Source: Candidatus Poribacteria bacterium (GTDB lineage: Bacteria; Poribacteria; WGA-4E; WGA-3G). Taken from it: a stretch of DNA of 64,000 bases. The notes beneath the pieces were generated by a model. The model worked only from the letters and a program-made list of their open reading frames with translations. It was not told where the DNA came from and made no database searches. Numbering within the stretch: the stretch's first letter is position 1; each line of letters opens with the position of its first letter. The DNA is taken from the NCBI GenBank assembly GCA_965262955.1, contig CBDHGE010000001.1, positions 3,103,637-3,167,636 on the forward strand, written 5' to 3'. The position numbers were made by a program, and so were the translations under genes. Of this stretch, positions 8,371 to 58,128 are shown one piece after another.

Positions 8371-8763
8371 GTTTCACAGCGTCAAAACACACGCCCATTA
8401 GGTGTGAAGTGAACGCTGACCTCCTTACTTCTTAGAATGGGCTTGCAAGCAACGCCCCTCGTTTTAGATAGTGCCTTTACTCCTCAAGGACTATGAACTG
8501 AAGTCTATATGCTTTGTTCTATTTTATATAATACTACTCTTGAAAGATTATGTCAACCGAAAAGTAAGGGCATTTAGATCGTTTAGCTTTCCTTTTTCCG
8601 CAGTAGGCGAGGTTTGTAACCTTGCCGATCTACCTTACCAATCCACTTCTTTCCTCTATCCTGCAAATCTTGGTTCAGACAACTCATAACCCACAACCTA
8701 CTACCTTCTTAACTAACCGCTGATAGCTGATAGCTGAGAACTGGACACCCTATAAAAATTGGG

Positions 8764-8799
8764 TTGACGCTTGCCTTAGTCTTGTGGCATAATCATAAT
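8764..8799 (+). promoter_or_regulatory. Putative sigma70 promoter for LamG-1 (TTGACG, 18-nt spacer, CATAAT; duplicated cataat)
   Basis: ttgacgcttgccttagtcttgtggcataatcataat, about 90 nt upstream of the 8888 start. The -10 is imperfect. Confidence 0.3.
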
Positions 8800-8887
8800 T
8801 GGATTAGGTTCAAAAAGATCTCGCTAATCTGTTAGATAAATTCGTTTTGTTGGGACAAAAATATCTCAACACATTTAGGAGGTTTTT

Positions 8888-9691
8888 ATGAAATTTATGA
8901 CCCAATTGATCTGTGTAGGATTTAGTCTCATTTTAAGCCTATGCCTATTTCTCACACCTGCCTTCGCCCAGCTTGGGATGGATACCTTAGTGGGGCTTTG
9001 GCTGTTTGATGAAGGTAGCGGCGACACCGCTATGGATTCTTCCGACAGTGGGCTTGATGCAACCTTGGTAGGGAATCCGAGCTGGGTAAGTGGCGTATTT
9101 GGTTCAGGACTGGAGCTTGACGGTTCAGGTGCCTACGTTGAGGTCCCCGCACACGTAAATCCGACTGATGCAATCACCGTCTCAATCTGGGTGAAAAGTA
9201 TGACGGATGATTGGAATCAGCACGGTTGGATGGTTGAAAAGCGGAATGCATATATTATCCATCCAAACCAAGGGACCAAAAACGTTTCCTGGCCCATCTG
9301 TAACAACGGTTGTTGGAACAAACCCGGTGGCTGGCGCGATGGCGAAGTCGGACCCGATGACATCACCGAATGGCATCTTTACACCGCTACTTTTGACAGC
9401 GCAAGCGGTGAGTGGAACATCTATATCGACGGTGTAGCAGAAAGCACAATGGAAATCAATACCGATCCAATTGATGCTGACGATGGTCCGGTTTTTATCG
9501 GTCGGGATACCTGTTGTGATGGCAGATTTGGCGATGCAGTCATCGATGAAGTCGCTATCTTCAACGTTGCCTTGACCGAAAGTGAAATCCAGATGATGAT
9601 GGATAAAGGGCTTTCAGCATTGCTCCTGACCCCTGTTGAACCCGAAGACAAGCTCTCTACGACTTGGGCAAATGTGAAACAACAGTATTAA
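8888..9691 (+). CDS. Secreted LamG-like (Laminin_G_3 / concanavalin-A-like jellyroll) protein, paralog 1
   Basis: Signal peptide, LVGLWLFDEGSGDTAMDSS...GNPSWVSGVFGSGLELDGSGAYVEVP (canonical Laminin_G_3 opening), C-terminal ...LSTTWANVKQQY. RBS AGGAGG 7 nt before the ATG. Confidence 0.7.
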   Translation: MKFMTQLICVGFSLILSLCLFLTPAFAQLGMDTLVGLWLFDEGSGDTAMDSSDSGLDATLVGNPSWVSGVFGSGLELDGSGAYVEVPAHVNPTDAITVSIWVKSMTDDWNQHGWMVEKRNAYIIHPNQGTKNVSWPICNNGCWNKPGGWRDGEVGPDDITEWHLYTATFDSASGEWNIYIDGVAESTMEINTDPIDADDGPVFIGRDTCCDGRFGDAVIDEVAIFNVALTESEIQMMMDKGLSALLLTPVEPEDKLSTTWANVKQQY

Positions 9692-9736: not shown

Positions 9737-9915
9737 CACTATCAACTTTCCTGCCCTATAGGAACCTCTCCACACATCCACAATTTCCTTGACATCAATT
9801 CACCCCTATGCCATACTGAACAACGAAGTTCGGGCTTGATATCCGATTGTTGATATCAAGCCGTAGCTTGCGCATACTGCTTAGATTTCGTCTTGAGAAA
9901 GGAACATTTATTATT

Positions 9916-10974
9916 ATGGAACCCGTAAAAGTGGGTGTGATTGGGTGTGGTGTCATCGGAAGCAGACATCTCAGTATTGCCTCGGATGCACCGCACATTG
10001 AGTTGGTCGCTGCGGCAGACCTGATTGAGGCGAACAGAACCACTGCTGCTGAACGCTTCAATCCACCCAAAATGTATACAAACGACATTGACCTGCTTGA
10101 TGACGATGAAGTTGAAGCAGTTGTCTTGGCATTTCCAACGCAGTACCGGACTGAGGTAGCCTTACGGGCGTTTGAGAGAGGTAAGCATGTTCTGATTGAA
10201 AAACCGATCGCCATGAACGCTGCTGAAGTTGAGAAACTCATCGCTGCGCGAGGTGATTTAGTCTCAGGATGCTGCTCATCCCGAAAGCGTTTTACACCAT
10301 CCGCGCAGCTCGCAACGCAACTGATTACCACTGGTGGTTTGGGCGAGCTGCGGACCGTCTACTGCCGCGCTATCATAGGAGCAAGGGAAAAACCGGATAC
10401 ACCGCGCCCTGCTTGGCGATTAATCAAGGCACTCAACGGAGGCGGCATCCTCGTTAACTGGGGATGTTACGATCTTGATTATCTACTCGGCATTACAGGC
10501 TGGAACCTCAAACCGCAAACTGTATTTGCCCAGACGTGGACCGTGCCTCAAGTCTTTAAATCGCACATCGCTCCCGGTTCCGATGCCGAAACGCACTACA
10601 CCGCACTCATCCGATGCGAAGGCGATATTGTTCTAAGCGTGGAACGAGGCGAGTTTATGACAATGCATTCGCATGCAGATTGGGAAATTATCGGCACTGA
10701 AGGCTCTCTTAAACTAAATATGCAGGATGGAAAACCGGACAGCGTCATCCACAATCGCACGACTACAGAAGGCGGCGTAGAGTCTACATCCCTCTCTGAC
10801 GCAGATGAAACGACTGAGGCACACCATAGCACGCCGTTGTCCGATTTCGCTGCCGCTATCCGAGAAAAACGACAACCCTCAACGAGTTTGGAAAAAGCCC
10901 TTGTTGTTCAGAAAATAACCGATGCTATTTACACTTCCGCAGAGACAGGAAAAGCTGTGGAGATAGGAGAATGA
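9916..10974 (+). CDS. Gfo/Idh/MocA-family NAD(P)-dependent oxidoreductase
   Basis: VKVGVIGCGVIGSRHL Rossmann motif, EKPIAMN, C-terminal alpha/beta domain. Start moved to ATG 9916 (AAAGGA RBS). The ORF track start 9847 adds 23 non-conserved residues. Confidence 0.85.
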   Translation: MEPVKVGVIGCGVIGSRHLSIASDAPHIELVAAADLIEANRTTAAERFNPPKMYTNDIDLLDDDEVEAVVLAFPTQYRTEVALRAFERGKHVLIEKPIAMNAAEVEKLIAARGDLVSGCCSSRKRFTPSAQLATQLITTGGLGELRTVYCRAIIGAREKPDTPRPAWRLIKALNGGGILVNWGCYDLDYLLGITGWNLKPQTVFAQTWTVPQVFKSHIAPGSDAETHYTALIRCEGDIVLSVERGEFMTMHSHADWEIIGTEGSLKLNMQDGKPDSVIHNRTTTEGGVESTSLSDADETTEAHHSTPLSDFAAAIREKRQPSTSLEKALVVQKITDAIYTSAETGKAVEIGE

Positions 10975-10976
10975 AC

Positions 10977-11735
10977 ATGAAATTCCGTATATTCGTAGGA
11001 TTGTGCACTATTTGCCTTAGTCTCATTATCGTCTCACTCGGCAATGCTGAAATTAATCTTGACGATTTTGCTGGTATATGGCTCTTTGATGAAGGTAAAG
11101 GTCAGGTTGTTAAAGATTTTACTGAGAATGGGAATGATGGTGAATTTGACGGACCCAAATGGATAGATGGGCAGTTCGGCAAGGCACTGGAATTCGATGG
11201 AAGCCCTAAGTATGTCATTATTGAACATAACGACCTTTTCAACTTCGAGGATGATGACTTTACTGTCGGATGTTGGATGAACTCGGAGAATAAAGATGCT
11301 TACGTCGTCATTAAACGGAACGGTGGTGCCGGTTTTTGGGCGATGAGTTCAAGCATTGATAGAGACACCGGCTTTTTCATCTTTGAGGGTGGTGGACAAC
11401 ACATTGACGATGGTAAAACCGATATTGTTGGAGGAGGTTGGCATCACACTGTCGCTGTTCGTAAAGACGGTGTTATTTCCCTATATGTAGATGGCGAGCT
11501 GGAAACCGAGCGAAACGTCGGCGCGAATATGGATAATCCCGCTATTCTGAAATTCGGTGGTTGGGGAAGTGAGAACCTCATCGGCGGATTGGATGAAGTA
11601 TTTATCACGAAAAAGGGCGTAGCGTTGGAAGAAGAGGATATCCAACTCCTTGCCGAGGAAGGTTGGGAAGTCGCCTTAGATGTTTCCGCAAAAGGAAAAA
11701 TGGCAACCACGTGGGCAAGGCTAAAAGCCCAATAA
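10977..11735 (+). CDS. Secreted LamG-like (Laminin_G_3) protein, paralog 2
   Basis: LDDFAGIWLFDEGKGQVVKDFTENGNDGEFDGPKWIDGQFGKALEFDGSPKYV..., C-terminal MATTWARLKAQ. The TGA of the upstream oxidoreductase (10972..10974) overlaps the first ATG (10971). The second ATG (10977) has better AGGAGA spacing. Translationally coupled to the oxidoreductase. Confidence 0.7.
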   Translation: MKFRIFVGLCTICLSLIIVSLGNAEINLDDFAGIWLFDEGKGQVVKDFTENGNDGEFDGPKWIDGQFGKALEFDGSPKYVIIEHNDLFNFEDDDFTVGCWMNSENKDAYVVIKRNGGAGFWAMSSSIDRDTGFFIFEGGGQHIDDGKTDIVGGGWHHTVAVRKDGVISLYVDGELETERNVGANMDNPAILKFGGWGSENLIGGLDEVFITKKGVALEEEDIQLLAEEGWEVALDVSAKGKMATTWARLKAQ

Positions 11736-11789: not shown

Positions 11790-12776
11790 CTATACAAAAA
11801 ATTTCTCAGCAACTTGGGTTATAAAATTTTTGCCCATAACGCGATAGCCCTCCGCATCGGGGTGTAGGTCATCCGGGAGCAGGTGGACGTAGTCCTCCCC
11901 AAATACACTTAACCCGTCAACGTAATGGACCTGATTATCGCCGTGTCCCTGAAGGGCTTCGGCGGCGGCTTGTACCTCTTCACGCATTCCTTTCAGATGG
12001 AACCCTACGGCGTTTGCAGTCTCCTCCCGCGGTGGTGAACAAATAGGCGACATCAACACGAGTGGGATGTCTGGATGCTTCTCACGAACAATCTGAACTG
12101 CACCGATAATCGCTGGACGGAACGCTCGCGGTCCTAAACTCGACGCACCTTGGATATTAATACCGACACACATTGAGATGTAATCAGCAGATAGGTCACG
12201 AATCATCCGTGCTACCATGGCATCGAGATGACACTGCCCACCGTAACCAAGACAAGTTAAATTCAACCCACGTTCACGTGCAACAATCGCTGGCCACGTC
12301 TGCGTCGCCGATGCTGCTGTTCGGCACTGCGTGATGGAGCTGCCGTAAGTCACCCACCGTTTTCGTGGGTCTGTAACCGAGTCCAAAGTTGCCCCGTCAT
12401 CAATTTCTAAGCTGCGGAGTTGAAAACTTCCGAATTGCGGCAGCCACAACTCAATCAGTTTTTCCCCATCGGACAAATTGTCAAAAACAAAACTGTCTTT
12501 TTGAGTCAGGTCGAGCGATGCTACGACTTCACCATCACAACAAAGGTCAAGTATACCGCTTTCATTTTGTGGAACGATATTGCCTGAAACCTGTGTCGTA
12601 TTGCTCCGAAAACTAATGCGAACCCCTGCAGGCATTGCCGAGCGTTCAAGTAACGGCTCAGGGAATAGGACATGCATCGGGTGCGGTGTGCGCCACGGCA
12701 TCACCCAGTCTTCAGTTTTTTGTAAGGAGATGCTCCCCTGCCAAGTCAATTGGGGTGCATCCGGCTTCAATTGCAT
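11790..12776 (-). CDS. SGNH/GDSL-like hydrolase (putative carbohydrate esterase) with N-terminal beta-sandwich region
   Basis: WVTYGSSITQC (GDSx-type nucleophile block), ...YISMCVGINIQG..., PDDLHPDAEGY (catalytic D-x-x-H block). Confidence 0.55.
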   Translation of the reverse strand: MQLKPDAPQLTWQGSISLQKTEDWVMPWRTPHPMHVLFPEPLLERSAMPAGVRISFRSNTTQVSGNIVPQNESGILDLCCDGEVVASLDLTQKDSFVFDNLSDGEKLIELWLPQFGSFQLRSLEIDDGATLDSVTDPRKRWVTYGSSITQCRTAASATQTWPAIVARERGLNLTCLGYGGQCHLDAMVARMIRDLSADYISMCVGINIQGASSLGPRAFRPAIIGAVQIVREKHPDIPLVLMSPICSPPREETANAVGFHLKGMREEVQAAAEALQGHGDNQVHYVDGLSVFGEDYVHLLPDDLHPDAEGYRVMGKNFITQVAEKFFV

Positions 12777-12803
12777 TATATTCTCCTCTACGCATAGGGG
12801 TTG

Positions 12804-13616
12804 TTACATCGCATCGACTATAGCGCGCAGTTGCCGTACGCCTCTCAACATATCTTCTGGTTGTCCCCAGTGTTCGATACTCGCCGAACCCGTGAACCCG
12901 TCAGCAGCCAGAGTTTCCAGCAGCTCCTCATAGTGCAATCCTGTATCACCAATAGGATTCAGATTTTTCTCACTGTTTGGTTTTACATGCACATGCCGCA
13001 CCAATCCCTTAATATGTGCGTATCCTTCCGGTAATGGATTTTCTCCACAATGTAACCCGTTATTGACATCCCAACAGGAGGTAAGTGCTGGGCTATTTCC
13101 GAGCGCGTTGATGACAGCACGTGTCTCTTCACACGTTCCGGCAAGACATGCACTTTCGTTTTCAAAGCAGAGCGTAACATCCCCACTCTCTGCAACCGGG
13201 ACGACAAGTGAGAGTTTTTCCACGATACGTTCCATGTAGTCATTAATGTCTGGGCGCGGCGCGCCTTTAATACGGCGATTCGGATTCCAAAATGTAAATC
13301 CACGAATAACTTGGGTATCAAACGCTTGTGCCAGTGTCACCATCCGATCAAAGTACTTTCGGTGTTGATCATATTCTTCGGGATCGTCAATTGAGCATTT
13401 CCCAAAAGGGGACCCAACACTCGCAACCCGGACGTTGTAAGTGCTGAGCACATCCTGAACGCGTTTGACATCGTCATCGTCAATTTCGGTTACGTGTTTG
13501 CCCCAAACACCGCCGCGTATTTCAACAGTGTTGGCACCGGCTTCAACGCCGAGTTTAATGGCTTCCTCAAAATCGGTTTTAGAAACTTCGTCAGCAAAAT
13601 AGCAGACGTCAATCAT
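12804..13616 (-). CDS. Sugar phosphate isomerase/epimerase (xylose-isomerase-like TIM barrel)
   Basis: MIDVCYFADEVSKTDFEEAIKLGVEAGANTVEIRG..., family-typical metal-ligand His/Glu/Asp pattern. Confidence 0.8.
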   Translation of the reverse strand: MIDVCYFADEVSKTDFEEAIKLGVEAGANTVEIRGGVWGKHVTEIDDDDVKRVQDVLSTYNVRVASVGSPFGKCSIDDPEEYDQHRKYFDRMVTLAQAFDTQVIRGFTFWNPNRRIKGAPRPDINDYMERIVEKLSLVVPVAESGDVTLCFENESACLAGTCEETRAVINALGNSPALTSCWDVNNGLHCGENPLPEGYAHIKGLVRHVHVKPNSEKNLNPIGDTGLHYEELLETLAADGFTGSASIEHWGQPEDMLRGVRQLRAIVDAM

Positions 13617-13639
13617 ATCAAATAGACTCCTTTGGCAAT

Positions 13640-14281
13640 TTACAGTTCTTTTAGTTCTGCGAGAATATGATCAGGACCGGTGCGAGTTCCAAACGTATCC
13701 AGGAATTTTGATACGACACGCCCTTCCTGATTGATAATGTAGGTTGCTGGACGTGCTATATCCGTGTCGCTCGGGTCAACGACATTGTAGGCAGCGATTA
13801 CCACCATGTCTGTATCTACGAGTAAGGGGTACGTAAGTTCAAGCGTCTTTTGTGTTGAGTCAACAACCGTCAGAGGATCGGCACTCATGGCGATCAGTGC
13901 AGCACCTTCCGCTTGAATGTCTGCATAACCAGTTTGCAACTCACCGAGTTGCAGACGACAGTTGCCTCACGTGCCTGTACGGTAGAAGACAATGACCAGT
14001 TTTTGTCCCTTGTACTGCGAAAGATTGTGGGTATTTCCCTTGCTATCTGGTAGGGAAAAATCAGGTGCAAGTGCCCCAATATCTAATCCCTCGCCCGGAG
14101 GGAGTTGTTCAGCTGCCTCCTCTGGTAATGTTATGAGATCTGTTGTTCGTTCGGCGTTGTCGCAAGCAAGACATAAGAAAATGAGAGCACTTAATAGAAA
14201 TGAGAAGCCTATTAAATTAGCCTTGTGCGAAAACAGCGATTTCAAGTTTGCCAGGTAATCGTCCATCAGTTTGAGTTCCAT
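13640..14281 (-). CDS. Selenocysteine-containing AhpC/TSA-redoxin (peroxiredoxin/thiol-disulfide oxidoreductase-like) lipoprotein. In-frame UGA (13967..13969) read as Sec.
   Basis: ORF-track fragments 13967..14281 and 13640..13939 are in the same frame. Own translation across the TGA: ...APDFSLPDSKGNTHNLSQYKGQKLVIVFYRTGT-U-GNCRLQLGELQTGYADIQAEGAALIAMSADP..., i.e. a redoxin fold with U-x-x-C in place of CxxC. N-terminal lipobox FLCLAC. SECIS-like hairpin follows the UGA. An alternative start at M6 (14266) gives an ATGA overlap with the sulfatase stop. Confidence 0.7.
13935..13953 (-). promoter_or_regulatory. Candidate bacterial SECIS hairpin for the Sec-redoxin (UGCAACUC-GGU-GAGUUGCA: 8-bp stem, G-rich apical loop, 14 nt 3' of UGA)
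   Basis: Perfect inverted repeat tgcaactcaccgagttgca on the + strand. Position and loop composition match bacterial SECIS expectations. Confidence 0.5.
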
Positions 14282-15597
14282 GTTTCTGGTTCTCCTTTAT
14301 CATTTTGTGAGTCCATCCAGTCGCGGACATCAGCGCGCATCTTTTCAAGGATCAGATGCATATCCGTCCTAAAGGCTAAATTGTTGAACTCATACGGATC
14401 CGTCGTTAGGTCATATAGTTCTTCCACTGGATGGTGTTGTGTAAGATAAACGAGTTGCGCCGTTTGAGGATCCACTTCCGCTTTTTCCACCCAACTTTTC
14501 CATACTTCAGCGTGACTCTCTGGAATATCTTCAACTTCAGTAAAGTGGGTTGTCCAACTATTTTGAGGCATCAGATTCAAAATGTATTTGTAACGACTGT
14601 CGCGGACACAACGCTGCGGGAAAATATTCATATTTCCATCGCGGGTGTGCGTACCGTAGATTTTATCTCGGAAGGTTTCCTGCTCTCCAAGTAAGACTTT
14701 CTTAAAACTTCTGCCATCTAAACTGTCAGGCGGGTCGCCGCCTCCAATATCAATGAGTGTTGGTAAAAAGTCAACGTGTGAAATCATCGCATCAGAAACA
14801 GTAGCGGTTGGAATTTCGCCGTGCCATTTCGCAAGGAACGGCAGACGAGTGCCGGTATCATACAGCGTCCATTTACAGTGGGGCCACTCTGCACCGTGGT
14901 CGGTCGTGTAGATAAAGAGCGTATTATCAGAATATCCGTGTGTCTCCAGCATTTTATTAACTTCACCGATGCGGGTGTCCATTGTGGTAATGTCTTGATA
15001 GTAGTTAGCAAGTGCCTTACGAGCGATGGGCGTGTCAGCGATATATGGCGGTAAAGGCAGAGACTCTGGATCATAAATCTTGTTCGGTTCCCATGTAACA
15101 TGGGGGTTGCTATCGCCGAGGATAAGACAGATGGGCTGCCCCGAATTTTCTTGTCGGTGGCTTGAAAGAAAATCTTCGACAGGTGCTGTATCAAGTCCTT
15201 CCGCCCGATATTTCCGATTATTCTCGGCACGCTTTGGAAGGAATCCGCCAATGTATTCAAAGTCAAAGAGGGTTTCCGGTTTAACATGTGTTTTCCCAGC
15301 GATTGCTACGCGATAACCCAGTTCTCGGAGCAACTTAGGCAAAGCTTTGAGATGCGCGTGACACTCGGTATGATTTCCCATCGCTCCGTGCCGAGCCGGA
15401 TAGAGTCCAGTGTAGAGGGTAGAGCGGGACGGAGCACAAGTCGGTGTCGGCGTGAAAGCGTGTGTAAAACGAATCCCTTCTTCTGCAATACTATCCAAGT
15501 GTGGTGTTTGAATATGTTCATTCCCGTAACAACCGAGGTATTCCCAGCCGTGGTCATCGGATAGATAGACGATGATGTTAGGTTTCTTCAATGACAT
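14266..15597 (-). CDS. Arylsulfatase (formylglycine-dependent sulfatase family)
   Basis: PTCAPSRSTLYTGLYPARHG (C-x-P-S-R FGly motif), GKTHV, TTDHG metal-site blocks. Confidence 0.9.
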   Translation of the reverse strand: MSLKKPNIIVYLSDDHGWEYLGCYGNEHIQTPHLDSIAEEGIRFTHAFTPTPTCAPSRSTLYTGLYPARHGAMGNHTECHAHLKALPKLLRELGYRVAIAGKTHVKPETLFDFEYIGGFLPKRAENNRKYRAEGLDTAPVEDFLSSHRQENSGQPICLILGDSNPHVTWEPNKIYDPESLPLPPYIADTPIARKALANYYQDITTMDTRIGEVNKMLETHGYSDNTLFIYTTDHGAEWPHCKWTLYDTGTRLPFLAKWHGEIPTATVSDAMISHVDFLPTLIDIGGGDPPDSLDGRSFKKVLLGEQETFRDKIYGTHTRDGNMNIFPQRCVRDSRYKYILNLMPQNSWTTHFTEVEDIPESHAEVWKSWVEKAEVDPQTAQLVYLTQHHPVEELYDLTTDPYEFNNLAFRTDMHLILEKMRADVRDWMDSQNDKGEPETWNSN

Positions 15598-15600
15598 AGA

Positions 15601-16473
15601 TCAGTCCTTAGCGGGTGGAAACGGTTTCACAGGTTCATTAATTTGATTTCCTCTTGGGATAGGTTCCGGTGGAAATTGCGTGAAAATCTCACCATTCTTC
15701 ATCGCCCATCGGGCGTTGGGGAAGAAGCGTTTGTTCCTCCCAGCAATCTCTGGATTTGTCCAAACGCCAGCAACGGCAACACGACTCTGCTCACTTTTGT
15801 TTGGTGGACTGTAGTGCCACATATTACTGTGCCAAAAGACAACGTCTCCAGTCCCTAATTCAATATGGCGTACACCGTGCTTTTCGATCATCTCCTGAAC
15901 GGCTTTGCGTGGCAATTCACCGTGAATACTGTCTGGGTATAGGACGTGTTCGATAATCTCGGTTTTGTGACTGCTCGGTATAAACTGCATGCATCCGTTT
16001 TCGCGAGTTGCAGGTTCAAGTGCTACCCAGAAATTGAGAGGTTCAGTATCGCCATCTCGCCAGAGTCCGTTGTCTTGGTGCCACGGGGTTGCAGCACCTG
16101 TGCGCGCCGGTTTGAGGAAGCTACTATTGAATTTCACAATCACGTCGTCTCCCAAAAAATAGCGGGCAATGTTCAGCATGGCAGGACCGGTATGGATATT
16201 GTGCCATATCAGCGGAGATTGAACACAGAAATTAGCGAGTTTACGGTAGCGTGCGATGCGTCCTTGCGGTGAGTCCTCCATCGGGTTCATTGGATCGAAA
16301 TCGGCAAACTCGCCAGGGTTGGGCAGCATAAGCACGTTGCGAATGACGCCGCGGAGTTGTGCTGCCAAATCTTCTGAGATAACATTGCGCTCAATAAAAT
16401 AGCCTTCACTCTCATATCGCGCTTTTTGTGCAGCGGTTGGTTGCCAGTTTCGCATGAAAATGTTTCCAGTCAT
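15601..16473 (-). CDS. Phytanoyl-CoA dioxygenase (PhyH) family Fe(II)/2OG oxygenase, tandem copy A
   Basis: WHQDNGLWRDG...FWVALEPATRENGCMQFIPSSHK...VFWHSNMWHYSPPN (HxD...H facial triad). About 88% identical to 16511..17422. Likely true start is M7 (16455), by alignment with the paralog. Confidence 0.85.
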   Translation of the reverse strand: MTGNIFMRNWQPTAAQKARYESEGYFIERNVISEDLAAQLRGVIRNVLMLPNPGEFADFDPMNPMEDSPQGRIARYRKLANFCVQSPLIWHNIHTGPAMLNIARYFLGDDVIVKFNSSFLKPARTGAATPWHQDNGLWRDGDTEPLNFWVALEPATRENGCMQFIPSSHKTEIIEHVLYPDSIHGELPRKAVQEMIEKHGVRHIELGTGDVVFWHSNMWHYSPPNKSEQSRVAVAGVWTNPEIAGRNKRFFPNARWAMKNGEIFTQFPPEPIPRGNQINEPVKPFPPAKD

Positions 16474-16510
16474 TTAGACAACAACGTCTCTTTTCTTCGA
16501 TGATATAAGA

Positions 16511-17422
16511 TTAGTAGCCCTTAGCGGATGGGAACGGCTTCGGTGCTTTAGCAGTTTGATGTTCCATCTGGACAGCTTCCGGTGGAAATTGTGTGCACAC
16601 CTCACCGTTTTTCATCGCCCATCGGAAGTGTCCCCAGAAGCGTTTACTAATCTTGGTGATCTCTGGATTTGTCCAGACACCGGCAACGGCAACACGGCTC
16701 TTCTCACTCCGATTGGGTGGGCTATAATGCCACATATTACTGTGCCAAAAGACAACGTCTCCGGTACCTAACTCGATGTGATGTACACCGTGCTTTTCTA
16801 TCATCTTCCGAACCTCCTCACGCGGAAGTTCGCCGTGGATGCTATCTGGGTATAACACGTGTTCAATAATCTCAGTTTTATGGCTGCCGGGTATAAACTG
16901 CATGCATCCATTTTCTCGGGTTGCTGGCTCAAGCGGCGTCCAAAAATTGAAAGGTTCAGTTTCACCATCTCGCCAGAGTCCGTTGTCTTGATGCCACGGG
17001 GTCGCGGCACCAGTACGCGCTGGTTTAAGGAAGCAACTATTAAACTTCATGATGATATCGTCGCCAAGGAAATAACGGGCGATGTTGAGAAGGGCAGGAC
17101 CCGCAAAGGTGTTGTGCCATATCAATGGGGCTTGGACACAAAAGTTGTTAAGTTTACGGTAGCGTGCAATGCGTCCTTGTGGTGAGTCTTCCATTGGATC
17201 CATGGGATCGAAATCAACAAACTCACCCGGGTTGGGCAGCATAAGAACATTCCGAATGACACCACGGAGTTGTGCTGCCAAATCTTCTGAAATAACATTA
17301 CGAAGGATAAAATAACCTTCGTCCTCATATTGTGCTTTTTGTGCAGGCGTTGGTTCCCATCGTTCCATTGTTAATTTCCTTTGCTTCTTTGTGGGGCTGA
17401 TGCGCTTGCGATGCCTACCCAT
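16511..17422 (-). CDS. Phytanoyl-CoA dioxygenase (PhyH) family Fe(II)/2OG oxygenase, tandem copy B
   Basis: Same motifs as copy A. Probable start is MERWEPT at 17368 (AAGGA RBS). The ORF track's 17422 start adds a basic N-extension. Confidence 0.85.
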   Translation of the reverse strand: MGRHRKRISPTKKQRKLTMERWEPTPAQKAQYEDEGYFILRNVISEDLAAQLRGVIRNVLMLPNPGEFVDFDPMDPMEDSPQGRIARYRKLNNFCVQAPLIWHNTFAGPALLNIARYFLGDDIIMKFNSCFLKPARTGAATPWHQDNGLWRDGETEPFNFWTPLEPATRENGCMQFIPGSHKTEIIEHVLYPDSIHGELPREEVRKMIEKHGVHHIELGTGDVVFWHSNMWHYSPPNRSEKSRVAVAGVWTNPEITKISKRFWGHFRWAMKNGEVCTQFPPEAVQMEHQTAKAPKPFPSAKGY

Positions 17423-17544
17423 AAATTACGCAAAGATGCCTTGAACCTGACATTGGAACTCTTCAACAACATCACTATCATCAGAATGTTTAAGAAGTCA
17501 CAGTTTCTTATATGATAACACTTGAGAAGATGTGTGTCAAGCCA

Positions 17545-18288
17545 CTAACGATCCTTAAGTCGTCCCCACGTCGTCGTAAGTAAACCGTTTGGTGAAACAG
17601 GCAGAACCGCCTCTACACCTTCCATCAACGCTCCGATTTCTGCTTCTGTGATACCTCGATCAAAAAAGATAATCTCATCCAATCTACCAATGAATTTCTC
17701 ACCACCAAATGTACCAAACAGCAATTCCGCTGACTGGTCTACATCGCCGCCTTGTTTGGTCGTGGCTTCGAGCGTGCCGTCTACATAAAGTTGCATCTCA
17801 CTTCCATCGTAAAGTCCAACAATATGATACCACTTTTCGGGGTCAATGACGGTTTTTCCCCACACACCGCCGGTAAACCCACCACCCGACCAGATACCGA
17901 ACACATAACCTCCGGGTACTCGCTCAGTTTGTGATTGGACCTCCAATAAATAAGAGCCGTTCCGTCGAATGGCGGTATCGGAAATCCCTTTATTCATATA
18001 GACCCAAGTTGCGATGGTCATCTGATCCTTAAAGTTGAGGCTATCGGAGGGTTCAACCCTCACAACATGCGGTGGTTCAAATTCCAATGCCCCGCCGAAT
18101 TTGCCTTCTGCCCACTTTGCACCGGTAATCGCACCATCGTTCCCGTTGCCCGACGTATCCGCAGCAACTCCACCTTTACCTTCATCAAAAAGCCAAATAC
18201 CAACGGCATCGTCTAACAGTTCTGCAGAGAGTGGACTATTTACTATGCACACACCAATAACGATAGCAAACCAATATATCTGTTTCAT
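17545..18288 (-). CDS. Secreted LamG-like (Laminin_G_3) protein, paralog 3
   Basis: Signal peptide, LLDDAVGIWLFDEGKGGVAADTSGNGNDGAITGAKWAEGKFGGALEFEP..., C-terminal LTTTWGRLKDR. Confidence 0.7.
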   Translation of the reverse strand: MKQIYWFAIVIGVCIVNSPLSAELLDDAVGIWLFDEGKGGVAADTSGNGNDGAITGAKWAEGKFGGALEFEPPHVVRVEPSDSLNFKDQMTIATWVYMNKGISDTAIRRNGSYLLEVQSQTERVPGGYVFGIWSGGGFTGGVWGKTVIDPEKWYHIVGLYDGSEMQLYVDGTLEATTKQGGDVDQSAELLFGTFGGEKFIGRLDEIIFFDRGITEAEIGALMEGVEAVLPVSPNGLLTTTWGRLKDR

Positions 18289-18425: not shown

Positions 18426-19178
18426 GTGAATTGGAAAATGCTGACGCAAGAAATGGTAGCCGATGTTCCATCAGATCCAGGGGTTTACTTCTTTCGCGGA
18501 GTTACAGGGACAATCCTTTATATCGGCAAAGCGAAATGTTTGCGAAAACGGGTACGTTCCTATCTCCATAAGGTAAAAAAACGCCCAAGCAAAATCAAAC
18601 GACTTATTCGGTGGACGACAGGTGTTCGATATCAGGTGTGTCGCTCCGAACAGGAAGCACTCTTCTTAGAGTCGAGGTTAATCCAAGAACATCAGCCGAG
18701 TTATAATACGGCTATGAAGTATGGGCGGCAGTCGTGGTATATTCGGATAGATGTTGGGGACGCATTTCCCCAGCTTGAGCGTGTATCAGAGACACAACCC
18801 GATGACGCGCGGTATTTCGGTCCCCTGTCGAGTCGGCGATGGACGGATGAGGCAATTGATGTTTTACAGCGGATTTTTCCGGTACGCACATGTGAGGGCG
18901 AAATTACACCTACGCCAGGGTTTCGTGCCTGTTTTCAGTATGATTTGAAACGTTGTAATGCACCGTGCGCAGCACTGATTACAAGCAAACTCTATAAAGA
19001 AACGATAACGGATATTGTTAATCTGTTGGATGGCGAGTACGAAGAAGTACAGACGAGTCTGGTTGCAAGACGGGATAATGCGGCGGAGGCACTGCAATTT
19101 GAGCGTGCCGCTGCGTTTCACAAACAACTCCAACGGATTCAGAAAGTGTTTACTTTCCTTGATGTGCATCGGAGGTAA
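18426..19178 (+). CDS. GIY-YIG nuclease resembling the N-terminal half of UvrC (GIY-YIG, Cys-rich region and UvrB-interacting UVR domain). Lacks the C-terminal RNase-H-like/HhH half.
   Basis: PGVYFFRGVTGTILYIGKAKCLRKRVRSY (GIY-YIG), YFGPL...IFPVRTCE, CFQYDLKRCNAPC, UVR-like helix LQFERAAAFHKQLQRIQKV. 250 aa versus about 600 for full UvrC. GTG start as called. Confidence 0.7.
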   Translation: MNWKMLTQEMVADVPSDPGVYFFRGVTGTILYIGKAKCLRKRVRSYLHKVKKRPSKIKRLIRWTTGVRYQVCRSEQEALFLESRLIQEHQPSYNTAMKYGRQSWYIRIDVGDAFPQLERVSETQPDDARYFGPLSSRRWTDEAIDVLQRIFPVRTCEGEITPTPGFRACFQYDLKRCNAPCAALITSKLYKETITDIVNLLDGEYEEVQTSLVARRDNAAEALQFERAAAFHKQLQRIQKVFTFLDVHRR

Positions 19179-19560: not shown

Positions 19561-20960
19561 TGTAGGTTCTGCTATACTCTTTAGACCAGTTGGCAGACAT
19601 ATCGAGCGTTGTCGCAAGGCAACGTGTCTGCCTACCCACTCGATAGGGGTTAACGGCTGGTAACTGGTACATCTTGAGAACCTACACATACAAAGTTCAG
19701 CACCATAAACGCAACCGTCATTTGCGTTCGGATACGCGTATCATCTCGCAAGTGCATAATCACTTCATAGCGTTGACGCGTCGGCACTACCGGATTTACG
19801 GATGCTGCGCAGGCTATAAGCGTGCGACCTATAACCGATTGAGTCGGCACTTGACGAAGTTGAAGAAACTCGAAAGATATGCTCACTGGCGTATCCCATA
19901 TGCTTGGGCGTTGCAAGAGTGCTTGAAACGTATTGAGTTGGGGTATCTCAACTTCTTTGAGAAGCGTGCCAAGCGTCCGCCGAAGTTCAAGTCGTGGCGA
20001 AACTACCGCTCTATGACCTTCAACGGCAATCAGGTCAAGGTTGAAACCGTATTTGAGAAGGAACGCCACAAGAGACGTGTGCCCGTTGCGAAAATACGCC
20101 TTGCTGGACGGTGGTATCGGTTCTGGTATTCTCGTGAGATAAAAGGTAATATCAAACGTATAACCGCCAAACGTGACGCACTCGGTGATTGGTATATCAG
20201 TATCACAACAGATTATGAAGGACTTACCCCCGAACCCAAGACGGGTGATGCTGCAGGGTTCGACTATGGCAACAAGACCTTTCTGACCTGTTCGGATGGC
20301 ACGAAATACGAATCGCCTGAGTTCTATAAGCAGTCTGCCAAGAAGGTAAAACAAGCCAATCGGGAGTTGTCTCGTAAGGTTAGAGGTAGCAACAATCGCA
20401 AACGTGCGAACAAGCACTATGCCCGAACCCATCGCAAGATTCAGAGACAGCGCGAAGATCACCACTGGAAACTTGCTTTGGAACTTGTCGGCAAGTTTGA
20501 CCTCTGTTTCTTTGAGGACTTGAACCTTGACGGCATGAAACGACTTTGGGGACGCAAGGTCTCTGACCTCGCCTTTGGTGAGTTCCTTGAGAAAATCCGA
20601 TGGCAAGCGAAAAAACGGGGAAAGCGCGTTGAGACGATAGGACGTTGGGAGGCGACAACGCCAGTTTGCCACAACTGCGGGCAAAAGCACCTCTTCATAG
20701 ATTTGAGTGTTCGCGATTGGTTCTGCCATAGTTGTAAAATCCATCATGACCGCGACATAAATGCGGCGATAAATATCCTCAAGGTTGGGGCATCAACCTT
20801 TGGAGGAGAGGGTATCAGACTTGCGATCGCAAGCAACCCTTGTTGATACCAGAATCCACCCGAAACGGGGGACACTTAGAATCCCCCGAATTCATTCGGG
20901 GGAGTATGTCAAGAAGAATTCGCAGCTGTATGCCCTATCAGAGCAGGCGGGCTATCGGCG
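19561..20960 (+). mobile_element. IS200/IS605-family, TnpB-only (IS1341-like) insertion element: structured left end, tnpB, and 3' hairpin-rich right end (probable omega/reRNA scaffold)
   Basis: Nested inverted repeats at 19563..19685 (GTAGGTTCT...AGAACCTAC, GACCAGTTGG...AACTGGTAC, GGCAGACA...TGTCTGCC). tnpB at 19674..20846. Downstream hairpins cccgaaacggggg and cccccgaattcattcggggg at 20855..20915. Exact boundaries not determinable from one copy. Confidence 0.6.
19674..20846 (+). CDS. tnpB: TnpB (IS605 OrfB) RuvC-like RNA-guided nuclease
   Basis: N-terminus MRTYTYKVQHHKRNRHL (TnpB-typical), RuvC blocks, C-terminal zinc finger CHNCGQKHLFIDLSVRDWFCHSCKIHHDRDINAAINI. Confidence 0.9.
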   Translation: MRTYTYKVQHHKRNRHLRSDTRIISQVHNHFIALTRRHYRIYGCCAGYKRATYNRLSRHLTKLKKLERYAHWRIPYAWALQECLKRIELGYLNFFEKRAKRPPKFKSWRNYRSMTFNGNQVKVETVFEKERHKRRVPVAKIRLAGRWYRFWYSREIKGNIKRITAKRDALGDWYISITTDYEGLTPEPKTGDAAGFDYGNKTFLTCSDGTKYESPEFYKQSAKKVKQANRELSRKVRGSNNRKRANKHYARTHRKIQRQREDHHWKLALELVGKFDLCFFEDLNLDGMKRLWGRKVSDLAFGEFLEKIRWQAKKRGKRVETIGRWEATTPVCHNCGQKHLFIDLSVRDWFCHSCKIHHDRDINAAINILKVGASTFGGEGIRLAIASNPC

Positions 20961-22074: not shown

Positions 22075-22983
22075 CTACTGCTTCTTCGCGTAAAGCGGGT
22101 CGTCAAGCAGAGATTGCACTTCGTAGATTGAACCTTTTAGTTCTGCGTAAGGTTCCGGCATACGAACAGGTGCAGCGACCATACGTGGCTCATTCGTCGA
22201 TTCGCCACGGATGATGCAGTTGTTGAAAGTCTCCCAATCTGGAATGCCTTTTAGGGGCCAGGCATCTACCGCACAGTACTGGGCAAGCATTAATCGGCGC
22301 GGTTTGCTGGAGGTGTTCGGGGCAGAACCGTGCAACGCTCGGACATGATGGATCGTGATCCCACCCGCCTTCAACTCAACAGGGACAGCACCTTCTGGTG
22401 TGAAATTGGGATCTGTTACTGCACCAATAAACGCTCCGTTCTGATGGTGATCTAAAGTCGGTCCCTTGTGGGAGCCAGGAAGTATCATCAATGCACCGTT
22501 TTCCACGGTCATATCATCAATCACCACACCGACTGCGAGTAAATCGTCGTTAGTGTGCGGGTAGAATGCCCAGTCCTGATGCCATTCAACAGGACTCCCA
22601 AACTCCGGATACTTCATGTTCAATTTATGTCCATTATACCGAACCCCCGGTCCAATGAGCTGCTCCACAATGTCCAAGATTCTGGGATGTCGTAAAGCGT
22701 AATCGTAAACGACGTGGTGTAGTCCCGGATTTTTGATGCGTCGGACGCGTGGATTAGCAGGAGAATGCCCTGGCTCGAGATCAAAGATGTCAGTATGTTC
22801 CGTAACTTCTCTCGATTTTTCGACAAATTCATTGGTGACGCGTTGGAGATCCGCGACCTCTTCTGCTGTTAGGACTGCCTCAACGCCGAGATAACCGTTT
22901 TCACCATAAAAGTCAAGTTGTTCTTGCGTGAGCATTGGTTCGTCAACTCCTCTTAGCGAAATGATACTGTTATTATACGTCAA
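22075..22983 (-). CDS. PhyH-family Fe(II)/2OG dioxygenase
   Basis: WHQDWAFYPHTNDD...ALMILPGSHKGP...ITIHHVRALHGSAPN. Confidence 0.85.
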   Translation of the reverse strand: MTYNNSIISLRGVDEPMLTQEQLDFYGENGYLGVEAVLTAEEVADLQRVTNEFVEKSREVTEHTDIFDLEPGHSPANPRVRRIKNPGLHHVVYDYALRHPRILDIVEQLIGPGVRYNGHKLNMKYPEFGSPVEWHQDWAFYPHTNDDLLAVGVVIDDMTVENGALMILPGSHKGPTLDHHQNGAFIGAVTDPNFTPEGAVPVELKAGGITIHHVRALHGSAPNTSSKPRRLMLAQYCAVDAWPLKGIPDWETFNNCIIRGESTNEPRMVAAPVRMPEPYAELKGSIYEVQSLLDDPLYAKKQ

Positions 22984-27195: not shown

Positions 27196-27942
27196 TTAAC
27201 GGTCTTTTATTTTCCCCCACGTTGTGGTGAGTTTACCACCTGCTTCGACATCCTGTGGTGAGTCCATAACTATTTGAATATCCGCTTCGCTCAAGGTTTT
27301 TTCATAGAGGCGAACCTCATCAATTTTACCCGGGAAGTGGTCGGTGGCGTTGCCGAGATCATCGCCACCAATCCAGAGATCTAAGGGAGAGGGGGCGATC
27401 GGCACGTTGTTGGGGGCGTCGCCTTCGAGTTTACCGTTTATATAAACCTTCATGTCCTTTCCATCAAAGGTTCCTGCGAAGTGATACCATTCGCCGACTT
27501 TCCAATCGGTTGTTGTGGATTCAGCAAAGGTGTTGTTCGGTTTGACAAGAAAGTCGATACTGCTTGCGTTACCGAAATCAAAAATGACGAAGATGGAGTT
27601 ATTTTTACTCATTAAGCGGTGACCGGTGAGAACATCGTTTGGACTGAACCACATCATAAGGGTAATATTTTCCTCGATTGCGAAGGCAGGATCATCTGCG
27701 ACAATGACATGATCGTCCTCACCGTCGAATTCGAGTGCAGTGCCGTATTTTCCCTCAACCCACTCGGGATCATCGTTAAACTCTCCATCGTGTCCATTGC
27801 CTGTAACATCTATAGCTTCTTTACCCTTACCTTCGTCAAAGGGCCAATAAGCAACAAGTCCATCTTCCGCAACGTTGGCGATACTGAGGTTAGCGATAAT
27901 GAGGAGGGAGCACAGCAAAAATACAGAGATAACTTTGGACAT
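27196..27942 (-). CDS. Secreted LamG-like (Laminin_G_3) protein, paralog 4
   Basis: Signal peptide, VAEDGLVAYWPFDEGKGKEAIDVTGNGHDGEFNDDPEWVEGKYGTALEFDGEDDHV..., C-terminal LTTTWGKIKDR. Confidence 0.7.
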   Translation of the reverse strand: MSKVISVFLLCSLLIIANLSIANVAEDGLVAYWPFDEGKGKEAIDVTGNGHDGEFNDDPEWVEGKYGTALEFDGEDDHVIVADDPAFAIEENITLMMWFSPNDVLTGHRLMSKNNSIFVIFDFGNASSIDFLVKPNNTFAESTTTDWKVGEWYHFAGTFDGKDMKVYINGKLEGDAPNNVPIAPSPLDLWIGGDDLGNATDHFPGKIDEVRLYEKTLSEADIQIVMDSPQDVEAGGKLTTTWGKIKDR

Positions 27943-28374: not shown

Positions 28375-29028
28375 TTAAACAGCACGCTCAATCGACCAAT
28401 GACGGTCAGTGCTCTGGACGACCTCTGCTCCCGGCATATCCATCTGCGTCAGCATCTCATTAACTTCAGTAATGGTAAACGCCGCAAGGAAAGAATCATA
28501 ATACAACTTCTGTTGATAAGGAGTATCATCCGCAGCATACAGATCCACAAAGGCTTGGGCATCTGCTGGCGTTTCAGGACGGATAAGATCGCGGATAAGC
28601 ACAACACCTTCGGAACGAGCAACTCTGCCCATCTCTTTGAGTGCGCTCATCGCATCGTGGATATGGTGGACGATGCTATTAGAAATGAGTCCGTCGAAGG
28701 TATTGTCGGGGTAGGGTAAAGTTTTGGCATCAACGAGTTCAAGAGTGATCCGATCAGTAAGACCGGCGTCTGCGACGTGACGTTTCGCTATTTTTAGCAT
28801 TTCCTCGGACAGGTCGATGGCGGTAATGTGGATGTTCGGACAGCGTTGCGCGAGAAGAAGAGGGATTTGTGCGGGACCGGTGCCGACATCAAGAAAATGT
28901 CCAGTGTTCGCACCCAGTGCGACAACGCGATCGACAAAAGCGCGGTCAACCTCGCCATGCTCCATCGCATCGTAGGCTTCGGCGGCTTCCGCTGTATCCA
29001 TAACTTCGGGTTCTACAATTCGATTCAT
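28375..29028 (-). CDS. Class I SAM-dependent methyltransferase
   Basis: LDVGTGPAQIPLLLAQR (motif I), ...DGLISNSIVHH (motif II/III). Confidence 0.75.
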   Translation of the reverse strand: MNRIVEPEVMDTAEAAEAYDAMEHGEVDRAFVDRVVALGANTGHFLDVGTGPAQIPLLLAQRCPNIHITAIDLSEEMLKIAKRHVADAGLTDRITLELVDAKTLPYPDNTFDGLISNSIVHHIHDAMSALKEMGRVARSEGVVLIRDLIRPETPADAQAFVDLYAADDTPYQQKLYYDSFLAAFTITEVNEMLTQMDMPGAEVVQSTDRHWSIERAV

Positions 29029-37543: not shown

Positions 37544-38317
37544 TCATATAATCCTTCCCACAGAAGAGCGGGTTGCCAGATGATTCCAGCCACGAAGAAC
37601 CAGTTTGACGTTGGTATGGCGGTTTTCGGCTTCGATCTCATCATCACCAGCATGCATCTGAACCAGAACACTTTTTCGGGTTTTGTTGGAATGGTTCGGC
37701 ATCGAACCGTGTAGCGTGAAGTAGCTAAAGAAAAGGACATCTCCCGGTTCCGCTTCTAAAACGGTTGCCTTCTCAATCGGGTATCGCTCCGTAACCTCAG
37801 CGTTAGCACCACTTCCCATCATGCCGTCGGTGCGTCCCAGCTGCTTGTGAGAGCCGGGATAAACGCGAACACAACCCATCTCATCGGTAGCTTCTGAAAC
37901 GTAGATCATAGCCGCTATCATTGTGTCTTTGACAGAGGGAAAATACTGCCAATCTTGGTGCATTGGGAAAGGAGAGCCTGTCTCCGGCGGCTTACAGAAA
38001 AGTTTGGAATGGTGAAGCATTATATCTGGTCCGAGAATGGCTTCAGTGACATCAAGAAACCTTTCCTGCATGAACGCTTGCATCCAAACGCCAGAGAAAC
38101 TCTGAATATTATGGGTATGGATAATAACGGATTCACCACCATCAAGGGCATCCATCAATCTACCACCCCAACGGGCGTTCACGTTCTCGTCGCTTTTAAG
38201 AAGCTGATCCACCACGCGATCGAAGTCGTTTTCCATCGCCGTGATTTCTTCAACTGAATAGACACCCTTGGCGAAGTAATACCCGTTTTCGTGAAAAAAT
38301 TTTCCTATATCTGACAT
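37544..38317 (-). CDS. PhyH-family Fe(II)/2OG dioxygenase
   Basis: MHQDWQYFP...VRVYPGSHK...FFSYFTLHGSMPN. Confidence 0.85.
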   Translation of the reverse strand: MSDIGKFFHENGYYFAKGVYSVEEITAMENDFDRVVDQLLKSDENVNARWGGRLMDALDGGESVIIHTHNIQSFSGVWMQAFMQERFLDVTEAILGPDIMLHHSKLFCKPPETGSPFPMHQDWQYFPSVKDTMIAAMIYVSEATDEMGCVRVYPGSHKQLGRTDGMMGSGANAEVTERYPIEKATVLEAEPGDVLFFSYFTLHGSMPNHSNKTRKSVLVQMHAGDDEIEAENRHTNVKLVLRGWNHLATRSSVGRII

Positions 38318-58073: not shown

Positions 58074-58128
58074 TTCCGCGTTAGGGCGGATCCCTTTTGC
58101 CCTACGTGAACTAAAAAGGAGTGGATTC

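Follow-up and report, generated by a model that had tools for sequence, protein, structure and literature searches.

Gene content of the cluster

We analyzed the region from 11790 to 18288 of a 64-kb stretch of Candidatus Poribacteria DNA (hereafter, the window), using Pfam for domains and NCBIfam for protein families. This region contains seven open reading frames (ORFs), all on the minus strand and exactly where the original prediction for this DNA had placed them, and Pfam backed every one of its seven domain calls. Starting from the LamG end, the ORFs encode an exported LamG (Laminin_G_3) protein (17545 to 18288; Pfam E value of 7.5e-19, plus a signal peptide), two copies of a PhyH Fe(II)/2-oxoglutarate dioxygenase (copy 1, 16511 to 17422, 3.8e-34; copy 2, 15601 to 16473, 1.2e-33), a Cys-type formylglycine sulfatase without a signal peptide (14266 to 15597; Sulfatase, 5.8e-46, and SGSH_C, 8.9e-21), a thioredoxin-fold selenoprotein and predicted lipoprotein with a T-U-G-N-C active site, here called the redoxin (13640 to 14281; AhpC-TSA, 1.9e-29), a xylose-isomerase-like TIM barrel protein (12804 to 13616; AP_endonuc_2, 1.6e-25), and an SsfX3-like SGNH/GDSL esterase or acyltransferase (11790 to 12776; SsfX3_N, 3.5e-19, and GDSL, 1.6e-14). 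None of the seven proteins received an equivalog-level name from the NCBIfam profiles.

The gaps between these ORFs, which had been described as short or overlapping, measured 122, 37, 3, -16 (an overlap), 23, and 27 nt, and Shine-Dalgarno-like motifs precede the sulfatase, redoxin, TIM barrel, and SGNH genes. The true start of PhyH copy 1 is likely M19 (17368), with AAGGAAA 7 nt upstream, and taking this start gives a LamG-to-PhyH gap of about 176 nt. Copy 2 likely starts at M7 (16455); a database protein identical to it is annotated with 284 amino acids (aa), versus 290 aa for the ORF (98% of the query covered).

Several of these families are very common in the genome. By Pfam, the window alone carries six PhyH, four LamG3, four GFO/IDH/MocA, and two AP_endonuc_2 genes, and a passage in Kamke et al. 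(2014; PMC3909097) gives PhyH a share of >1.9% of all poribacterial genes versus <0.049% in all other genomes. Co-occurrence with a sulfatase gene is therefore weak evidence on its own, and the conservation of the cluster needed testing.

Conservation of the gene order in Poribacteria

The window proteins were mapped by tblastn onto 77 loci; the set comprised 60 poribacterial species genomes, and 58 loci were informative. A scan with one genome per species recovered sulfatase orthologs, 77 to 90% identical, from over 50 Candidatus Poribacteria metagenome-assembled genomes, and the homologs in Pirellulales, Phycisphaerae, and Verrucomicrobiota showed just 52 to 60% identity. Outside Poribacteria, the sulfatase gene stands alone or among other sulfatase genes, without PhyH or redoxin.

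Two arrangements were seen in Poribacteria. In clade A (33 loci), a divergent GIY-YIG gene is followed by an optional LamG gene and then by PhyH, sulfatase, redoxin, TIM barrel, and SGNH genes, beyond which an optional LamG gene, a GFO/IDH/MocA gene, and two LamG genes lie on the opposite strand. In clade B (25 loci), the divergent GIY-YIG gene is followed by PhyH, sulfatase, and redoxin only, and then by convergent unrelated genes. The TIM barrel and SGNH genes were present in 33 and absent from 25 of the 58 informative loci, the SGNH gene always standing after the TIM barrel gene. The PhyH gene lies directly upstream of the sulfatase gene in all informative poribacterial loci but one, L035, and the distance from the PhyH stop to the sulfatase start is 3 to 9 nt throughout the relatives (3 nt in the window). 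On the other side of the sulfatase gene, 11 relatives have an ATGA junction in which its TGA and the ATG of the redoxin gene overlap, and a TGA-to-TGG change in the window extends this overlap to 16 nt. The internal stops noticed in 11 sulfatase orthologs were considered as second selenocysteine sites or signs of pseudogenes and rejected as such: they are the natural TGA, three codons before the stop of the window gene.

The remaining genes are less constant. Apart from the window, L011 alone has two PhyH copies; in the window, the two share 81% identity, and the second is a recent tandem duplicate. LamG is absent upstream of PhyH in about nine clade A loci and in nearly all clade B loci. A Uma2-like ORF of about 200 aa lies between LamG and PhyH in eight relatives (L003, L008, L010, L015, L019, L022, L026, and L047; about 8400 to 9140 in each); inspection by eye, and not Pfam, assigned it to the Uma2/DUF820 family of putative endonucleases, on the strength of the motifs YELVKGVL...PDLAVEVISPGDT. 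Given this insertion in eight relatives, the LamG-PhyH junction is a rearrangement hotspot.

Because the order of PhyH, sulfatase, and redoxin is kept across the clades while the other genes vary, these comparisons indicated that the three genes form the conserved unit, with TIM barrel and SGNH as a clade-specific extension and LamG as a variable neighbor. Thus, of the seven-gene operon that had been predicted, the tight, co-directional, and conserved cluster stood, but the synteny reduces its core to three genes; the conservation of gene order in relatives, when checked, held for PhyH-sulfatase-redoxin and was not universal for LamG, the second PhyH, or the TIM barrel and SGNH pair.

Unrelated genes that flank the cluster (GIY-YIG at one end, GFO/LamG at the other) are conserved as well, so that shared descent, and not selection for linkage, accounts for part of the synteny. 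It could be argued from this that the genes share no pathway at all, being neighbors by descent in a slowly rearranging region, and that the redoxin is an independent periplasmic housekeeping reductase sharing the promoter, with a role, for example, in cytochrome or copper-protein maturation or in methionine sulfoxide repair. The high density of the PhyH, LamG, GFO, and TIM families in the genome, for PhyH as given in the passage of PMC3909097 cited above, would favor this view, as would the equally conserved flanks. However, the 3- to 9-nt PhyH-sulfatase spacing and the ATGA overlap persist across clades, at 77 to 90% protein identity, amid changes in TIM barrel and SGNH, LamG, and Uma2 genes, which argues for selection on linkage, at least between PhyH and sulfatase. 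We regard a cluster without any shared pathway as unlikely.

The sulfatase and the localization of the products

The window sulfatase scored 157.6 bits for PF00884 (gathering cut-off, 25), and its formylglycine motif, CAPSR, is intact near the N terminus. CAPSR was present in 55 of the 57 poribacterial orthologs examined, with CVPSR in one and no motif detected in the other. Together with the Sulfatase and SGSH_C domains, the intact motif bore out the earlier formylglycine sulfatase call. The best solved-structure matches over the full length were S1_8A (6e-49), S1_8B, human SGSH, and S1_8C, while steroid and aryl sulfatases matched far more weakly (PDB 1p49 at 7e-20 versus 6e-49 for S1_8A). 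By this nearest-neighbor proxy, the enzyme appears closest to SulfAtlas subfamily S1_8, which is of the carbohydrate type. Pseudoalteromonas distincta S1_8A, S1_8B, and S1_8C (PDB 9bb9, 9bbd, and 9bba), which belong to a lambda-carrageenan polysaccharide utilization locus, and SGSH (4mhx) have the same two-domain S1 architecture including SGSH_C, and in these proteins as in the poribacterial sulfatase the catalytic Cys stands in a C-x-x-x-R context. The substrate of P. distincta S1_8A is a monosaccharide in free form, in keeping with a late step after uptake for the poribacterial enzyme.

Unlike the characterized S1_8 enzymes, which have signal peptides (removed for expression), the poribacterial sulfatase has none. 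All poribacterial orthologs lack a signal peptide and begin with M-x-x-K-K-P-N-I-V-V-Y-L-S-D-D-H-G, and in most loci a stop codon lies 0 to 4 codons upstream of the start; eight loci have a longer open stretch before the start, which is not signal-like. By contrast, the homologs in Pirellulales, Phycisphaerae, and Verrucomicrobiota carry twin-arginine (Tat; T-R-R-x-F-L-K) or general secretory (Sec-type) signals. The poribacterial lineage therefore lost the export signal, and its sulfatase is predicted to be cytoplasmic.

The same holds for most of the cluster. Both PhyH proteins, the TIM barrel protein, and the SGNH protein are without signals, and PhyH, sulfatase, and SGNH begin straight at their catalytic domains; among the seven products, hydrophobic signals at the N terminus are confined to LamG and the redoxin. 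The original prediction had assigned export signals or periplasmic chemistry to all enzymes except the TIM barrel. Neither part withstood this analysis, as five of the seven products have no export signal and, with sulfatase, PhyH, and SGNH all signal-less, the chemistry is predicted to be cytoplasmic.

The redoxin is a selenoprotein

The redoxin gene contains an in-frame TGA (13967 to 13969, minus strand) in the context FYRTGT-U-GNC, and with this TGA read as Cys the product matched AhpC-TSA (at the E value given above) and the Redoxin domain too. All 58 orthologs have a TGA at the aligned codon, always in the form U-x-x-C, and the C-terminal half past the TGA continues in the same frame with 37 to 81% identity. 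Starting 14 nt after the UGA is a hairpin resembling a selenocysteine insertion sequence (SECIS), GCAACUC-GGU-GAGUUGC (13936 to 13952, minus strand), which spans 17 nt with a 7-bp stem and a GGU loop. RNAalifold on 55 sequences yielded exactly that helix, with compensatory changes at two of the seven pairs (GC/UA/CG and AU/GU/GC). Moreover, synonymous sites in the hairpin are frozen (Leu CTC in 59/59, Glu GAG in 58/58, and Leu TTG in 57/59), the two CTG exceptions to Leu TTG falling at a covarying stem position, and the other conserved Leu codons of the gene show 1 to 2.3 bits of codon entropy. The earlier call of a selenocysteine-containing redoxin is thus upheld by the invariant TGA, the covarying hairpin, and the frozen synonymous sites. 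The hairpin comes from the comparative analysis only; when the region around the UGA was folded as a single sequence, the result lacked significance (z = -1.44) and the minimum free energy structure was another one. An Rfam scan of the whole window gave no match, hence no curated SECIS or riboswitch, and ARAGORN found no tRNA in the window, tRNA-Sec included.

Among database homologs P0001 to P0009, public gene calls on short contigs show the selenocysteine codon as Trp (GTWGFC), so these contigs were called with the TGA=Trp code (genetic code 4); others end at FYRTGT. The Trp-containing and truncated entries are a systematic gene-calling artifact, and because gene callers either truncate the protein or give Trp, the assignment provides a useful annotation fix. 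The nearest Cys form, P0014, is 33% identical and reads FYRGFWCTRC, its Cys aligning with U; no close Cys-form ortholog was found among the database homologs.

All 58 redoxins have a hydrophobic N-terminal stretch ending in [G/A/S]-C, which predicts a lipoprotein with an invariant lipobox-like Cys. In an alignment with ResA, U-G-N-C falls on C-E-P-C and R-P-A-T on L-P-T-T, the cis-Pro loop. A peroxiredoxin was considered and rejected: relative to the peroxiredoxin 2ywn, the motif residues Pro, Thr, and Arg are replaced by Arg, selenocysteine, and Pro, respectively, and scores stayed below the NCBIfam peroxiredoxin cut-offs. Given the CxxC and cis-Pro fit and the misfit to the peroxiredoxin motif, the redoxin is ResA/TlpA-like and not a peroxiredoxin. 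Its best NCBIfam match was ResA, at 61 bits versus a cut-off of 170, which makes it a relative of ResA and not an ortholog. Like the ResA/TlpA/CcmG type (Bacillus subtilis ResA, PDB 1st9), it is a thioredoxin fold with a predicted membrane or lipid anchor; it differs from ResA in having selenocysteine for Cys and one extra residue before the motif, and no cytochrome-maturation or CcdA/DsbD genes lie near it.

A UxxC class termed "Prx-like thiol:disulfide oxidoreductase" has reportedly been described in the Sargasso Sea selenoproteome. The redoxin resembles such UxxC selenoproteins in having selenocysteine for the N-terminal Cys of CxxC, an AhpC/TSA-Redoxin fold, and a SECIS downstream. Unlike the known ones, it has a motif of its own, F-Y-x-[TF]-G-T-U-x-x-C, together with a lipoprotein signal, and a fixed gene position directly after the sulfatase gene; against the NCBIfam profiles SelL_rel_redox, WAxxUGC_long, and peroxi_PrxU it scored 34, 28, and 25 bits, respectively (cut-offs, 120, 300, and 270). 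In Poribacteria, selenocysteine-containing hydrogenases have been reported (PMC13582414), and a passage in Slaby et al. (2017; PMC5649159) describes SelA and SelB as enriched in sponge symbionts.

Three genomes separate the redoxin from the sulfatase. In L075, sulfatase residues 1 to 62 and 385 to 443 are left, with a TnpB gene between them; in L076, residues 39 to 376 are deleted; and in L077, 41 residues are left and the PhyH gene is interrupted. All three keep the redoxin frame, the TGA, and the hairpin. With the redoxin intact where the sulfatase is destroyed, it is apparently not obligatorily tied to the sulfatase, and the earlier reading of the selenoprotein as integrated with the enzymes of the locus is not supported on this point. 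The survival of the redoxin, and its predicted compartment, which differs from that of the other products, are further points in favor of neighbors without a shared pathway.

PhyH, TIM barrel, and SGNH proteins

In PhyH, residues H126, D128, H214, and R225, which correspond to the HxD...H triad and the 2-oxoglutarate-binding Arg, were invariant across 26 homologs. The AlphaFold2 model of copy 2 had a mean pLDDT (predicted local distance difference test score) of 83.7, and Foldseek matched it to PhyH-family structures at an E value of about 1e-16. Homologs with 57 to 60% identity occur in Chloroflexi, Gemmatimonadetes, and Armatimonadetes, where they neighbor GH43 and beta-helix proteins, heparinase II/III and UxuA, or LacI and GH116. 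Such neighborhoods link the PhyH subfamily with the catabolism of carbohydrates and show no tie to sulfatases. A scheme in which a sulfamidase step is followed by oxidative deamination was dropped, as KanJ-like aminosugar deaminases were absent from the PhyH structure matches. The six PhyH genes of the window (16511 to 17422, 15601 to 16473, 22075 to 22983, and 37544 to 38317 on the minus strand; 58051 to 59001 and 59061 to 59885 on the plus strand) include two tandem pairs, consistent with the share of >1.9% given in the passage of PMC3909097.

In almost every locus, PhyH is tightly coupled to the sulfatase from the position just upstream, which raises another reading: PhyH would be a maturase of a new type that hydroxylates the C-beta of the sulfatase active-site Cys, in a reaction dependent on Fe and 2-oxoglutarate, to give formylglycine, replacing the formylglycine-generating enzyme (FGE) or the anaerobic sulfatase-maturating enzyme (anSME) in the cytoplasm. 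This chemistry is plausible by inference alone, and neither FGE nor anSME was seen among the Pfam domains of the 64-kb window, which says nothing on FGE elsewhere in the genome. We consider such a maturase barely credible, since the PhyH homologs in other phyla have no sulfatase neighbor, the structural neighbors of PhyH hydroxylate small molecules and not proteins, L035 has a sulfatase without an adjacent PhyH, and L075 and L076 keep PhyH without a sulfatase. In a milder version, PhyH and the sulfatase could catalyze two successive steps dedicated to a sulfated metabolite specific to sponges.

For the TIM barrel protein, the NCBIfam matches to sugar 3-epimerases were weak and all below the cut-offs. 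The SGNH protein matched PDB 3skv (SsfX3) over its full length at 1.2e-56, carries the GSS (YGSSIT) and DxxH (DDLHP) motifs in its translation, and has a CE2-like architecture with an N-terminal beta-sandwich (SsfX3_N) followed by Lipase_GDSL_2. SsfX3 is an enzyme of the tetracycline SF2575 biosynthetic pathway.

This similarity bears on the nature of the substrate, which might be a non-carbohydrate sulfated small molecule of the sponge, such as a sterol, terpenoid, or aromatic compound, that PhyH hydroxylates, the sulfatase desulfates, and the SsfX3-like enzyme relieves of an acyl group or uses in acyl transfer. Besides the full-length SsfX3 homology, the closest structures of PhyH (proline and leucine hydroxylases, PtlH, SnoN, EctD, and EvdO2), the predicted cytoplasmic location of all the enzymes, and the confinement of the module to sponge-associated Poribacteria are in line with such a substrate. 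We nevertheless hold it to be unlikely, as the best sulfatase matches are of the carbohydrate subfamily S1_8, with 1p49 far behind, the PhyH homologs elsewhere lie in glycan-degradation contexts, and the neighboring families (TIM barrel and GFO/IDH/MocA) are typical of sugar metabolism.

Operon boundaries and the LamG gene

The best site in an 8-kb promoter scan was a sigma-70-like candidate, TTGACA-17-TATCAT, at 17540 to 17512 on the minus strand, which matches 11 of 12 consensus positions, has a TG before the -10 element, and is placed directly after the LamG stop codon, upstream of PhyH copy 1. A similar element lies upstream of PhyH in seven relatives (L006, L013, L017, L020, L023, L024, and L042), with the form TTGACA/TTAACA/TTGATA-N17(..AAGTGT or ..AAGTGG)-TAT[CG]AT, and in clade B a different sequence, TTTACA-N17-TAAAAT, is conserved at about 52 nt from the PhyH ATG, on its upstream side. 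A terminator scan found no site between genes on the minus strand, the sole minus-strand site being a 5-bp stem inside the coding sequence of PhyH copy 1; over both strands, 4 terminator-like sites were observed versus 8.6 expected by chance. A GC-rich hairpin 3' of the SGNH gene, between convergent genes, was examined as a terminator and set aside, as a U-tract is missing and the fold falls short of significance. We infer that the operon begins at PhyH and not at LamG, with co-transcription predicted from there, and that LamG is probably a separate transcription unit outside the conserved core. As for internal boundaries in the predicted seven-gene operon, a promoter-like site and variable gene content split off LamG, and on the minus strand the stretches between the genes are free of terminator-like sites.

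These results also bear on the full scheme that had been proposed, in which a single operon from LamG to SGNH provides enzymes, most of them exported, that take sulfate and ester groups off a decorated sulfated glycan in the periplasm and trim it oxidatively. In its favor, the seven genes run in one direction with short gaps, the sulfatase belongs to a carbohydrate type, the N-terminal domain of the SGNH protein is CE2-like, and in L001, L014, L016, and L021 LamG ends 16 to 40 nt before PhyH, where co-transcription is possible. Against this, five of the seven products have no export signal and the sulfatase lost the signal of its homologs in other phyla; LamG is absent or separated by a gene in many relatives, with a strong promoter-like site after its stop codon in the window; and the TIM barrel and SGNH genes are missing from 25 loci. 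Furthermore, the Pfam scan between 11790 and 18288 found no glycoside hydrolase, polysaccharide lyase, or transporter, so the cluster is not a polysaccharide utilization locus; together with the enzymes lacking export signals, this speaks against a periplasmic glycan-processing locus. The localization part of the scheme is largely refuted, and we find the scheme as a whole quite improbable.

Four exported LamG paralogs were noted in the window (8888 to 9691 and 10971 to 11735 on the plus strand; 17545 to 18288 and 27196 to 27942 on the minus strand). All four have a signal peptide and, near the N terminus, the motif W[L/P]FDEGxG. Their common C-terminal motif, V-x-P-x-x-K-L-[T/S]-T-T-W-G-x-[L/I]-K, ends 2 to 3 residues before the stop and looks like a sorting or anchoring signal. 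One of them (10971 to 11735) overlaps by 4 nt a GFO/IDH/MocA dehydrogenase gene without a signal (9847 to 10974, plus strand), whose best NCBIfam match is inositol 2-dehydrogenase, below the cut-off; this GFO-LamG pair is kept in clade A relatives. The coupling of a cytoplasmic enzyme to an exported LamG protein seems to be a recurrent feature of this genome.

Proposed function

With moderate confidence, we propose that the PhyH-led operon completes the processing of an imported sulfated sugar in the cytoplasm and, on the same transcript, supplies a separable periplasmic selenoprotein reductase. The substrate would be a sulfated sugar or small oligosaccharide, in clade A also O-acylated, that derives from host or algal sulfated glycans and is imported. 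The S1_8-like sulfatase would take off the sulfate in the cytoplasm, most plausibly from a 2-O or N position, and the PhyH oxygenase would oxidize the sugar; in clade A, the SGNH enzyme may remove the acyl group and the TIM barrel enzyme may isomerize the product for central metabolism. The ResA/TlpA-like selenoprotein would serve as a thiol-disulfide reductase in the periplasm, co-transcribed with these enzymes yet separable in function.

Several observations weigh against this proposal. The S1_8 assignment denotes the nearest solved structure, at visibly low sequence identity; the structural neighbors of PhyH are generic small-molecule hydroxylases, none of them functionally specific; and the cluster has no glycoside hydrolase, lyase, or transporter gene, nor did FGE or anSME appear among the Pfam domains of the window. 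With PhyH at >1.9% of poribacterial genes, as stated in the passage of PMC3909097, adjacency to a PhyH gene is cheap, the unrelated flanks are conserved too, and L035 has sulfatase and redoxin without an adjacent PhyH. Operon status is drawn from spacing, conservation, and consensus scans.

Comparison with known systems and significance

Poribacteria are dominant uncultivated sponge symbionts with many sulfatases and a uniquely large, unexplained PhyH family. In Pseudomonas, a sulfate-starvation regulon combines the AtsA sulfatase, the AtsK/TauD 2-oxoglutarate dioxygenases, and the AhpC/TSA-type LsfA for the use of organosulfur compounds. It offers the same trio of a sulfatase, an Fe/2-oxoglutarate dioxygenase, and an AhpC/TSA-fold thiol protein; however, AtsK/TauD belong to the TauD family and not to PhyH, and LsfA is a cytoplasmic 1-Cys peroxiredoxin, unlike the exported UxxC lipoprotein predicted here. 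Sulfur scavenging is implausible in sulfate-rich seawater.

Passages in Slaby et al. (2017; PMC5649159) describe sponge-symbiont sulfatases that cluster with ATP-binding cassette (ABC) transporters and dehydrogenases, passages in Kamke et al. (2014; PMC3909097) describe a poribacterial PhyH expansion mostly of unknown function, and these passages propose sulfated polysaccharides from the matrix of the sponge as the substrates of the sulfatases. These are the same organisms and the same enzyme families as in the present cluster, and those passages mention no PhyH-sulfatase-selenoprotein operon, no signal-peptide loss, and no redoxin selenoprotein. Our literature searches found no earlier description of a PhyH-sulfatase-redoxin operon, of lineage-wide signal-peptide loss, or of a lipoprotein subfamily that always contains selenocysteine. 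Sponge symbionts rich in sulfatases, the expansion of PhyH in Poribacteria, and selenoproteins with UxxC have all been described before; the cluster is real and lineage-specific, but of ordinary kinds.

A PhyH-sulfatase pair locked across more than 50 species is a clonable pair with which to probe the role of one oxygenase, and, if true, the two-step route would give a function to one member of a PhyH expansion that makes up about 2% of the genome. Loss of the Tat or Sec-type signal would mean that part of the desulfation by these symbionts is intracellular and acts on imported small substrates, not on matrix polymers, and the redoxin adds a predicted lipoprotein that always contains selenocysteine to the sponge-symbiont selenoproteome. 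The current understanding of these enzyme families is unchanged, and the interest lies mainly with specialists on sponge symbionts and selenoproteomes.

Neighboring genes

Four sizeable ORFs of the window had no Pfam match at an E value of ≤0.001 (33872 to 36379, 28946 to 29812, and 50942 to 51745 on the minus strand and 56153 to 56989 on the plus strand; 835, 288, 267, and 278 aa, respectively). The divergent neighbor of the cluster, conserved in nearly all Poribacteria loci, encodes a 250-aa protein with GIY-YIG and a UVR motif (18426 to 19178, plus strand); this protein is UvrC N-terminal-like, without the C-terminal half of UvrC. About 500 nt past it at the LamG end is an IS605-type TnpB gene (OrfB_IS605 plus Cas12f1-like TNB; 19674 to 20846, plus strand), which is covered by an antisense ORF of 365 aa (19650 to 20747). 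The TnpB gene inside the orthologous sulfatase gene of the relative L075 (10375 to 11475) encodes a protein 40% identical to that of the window.

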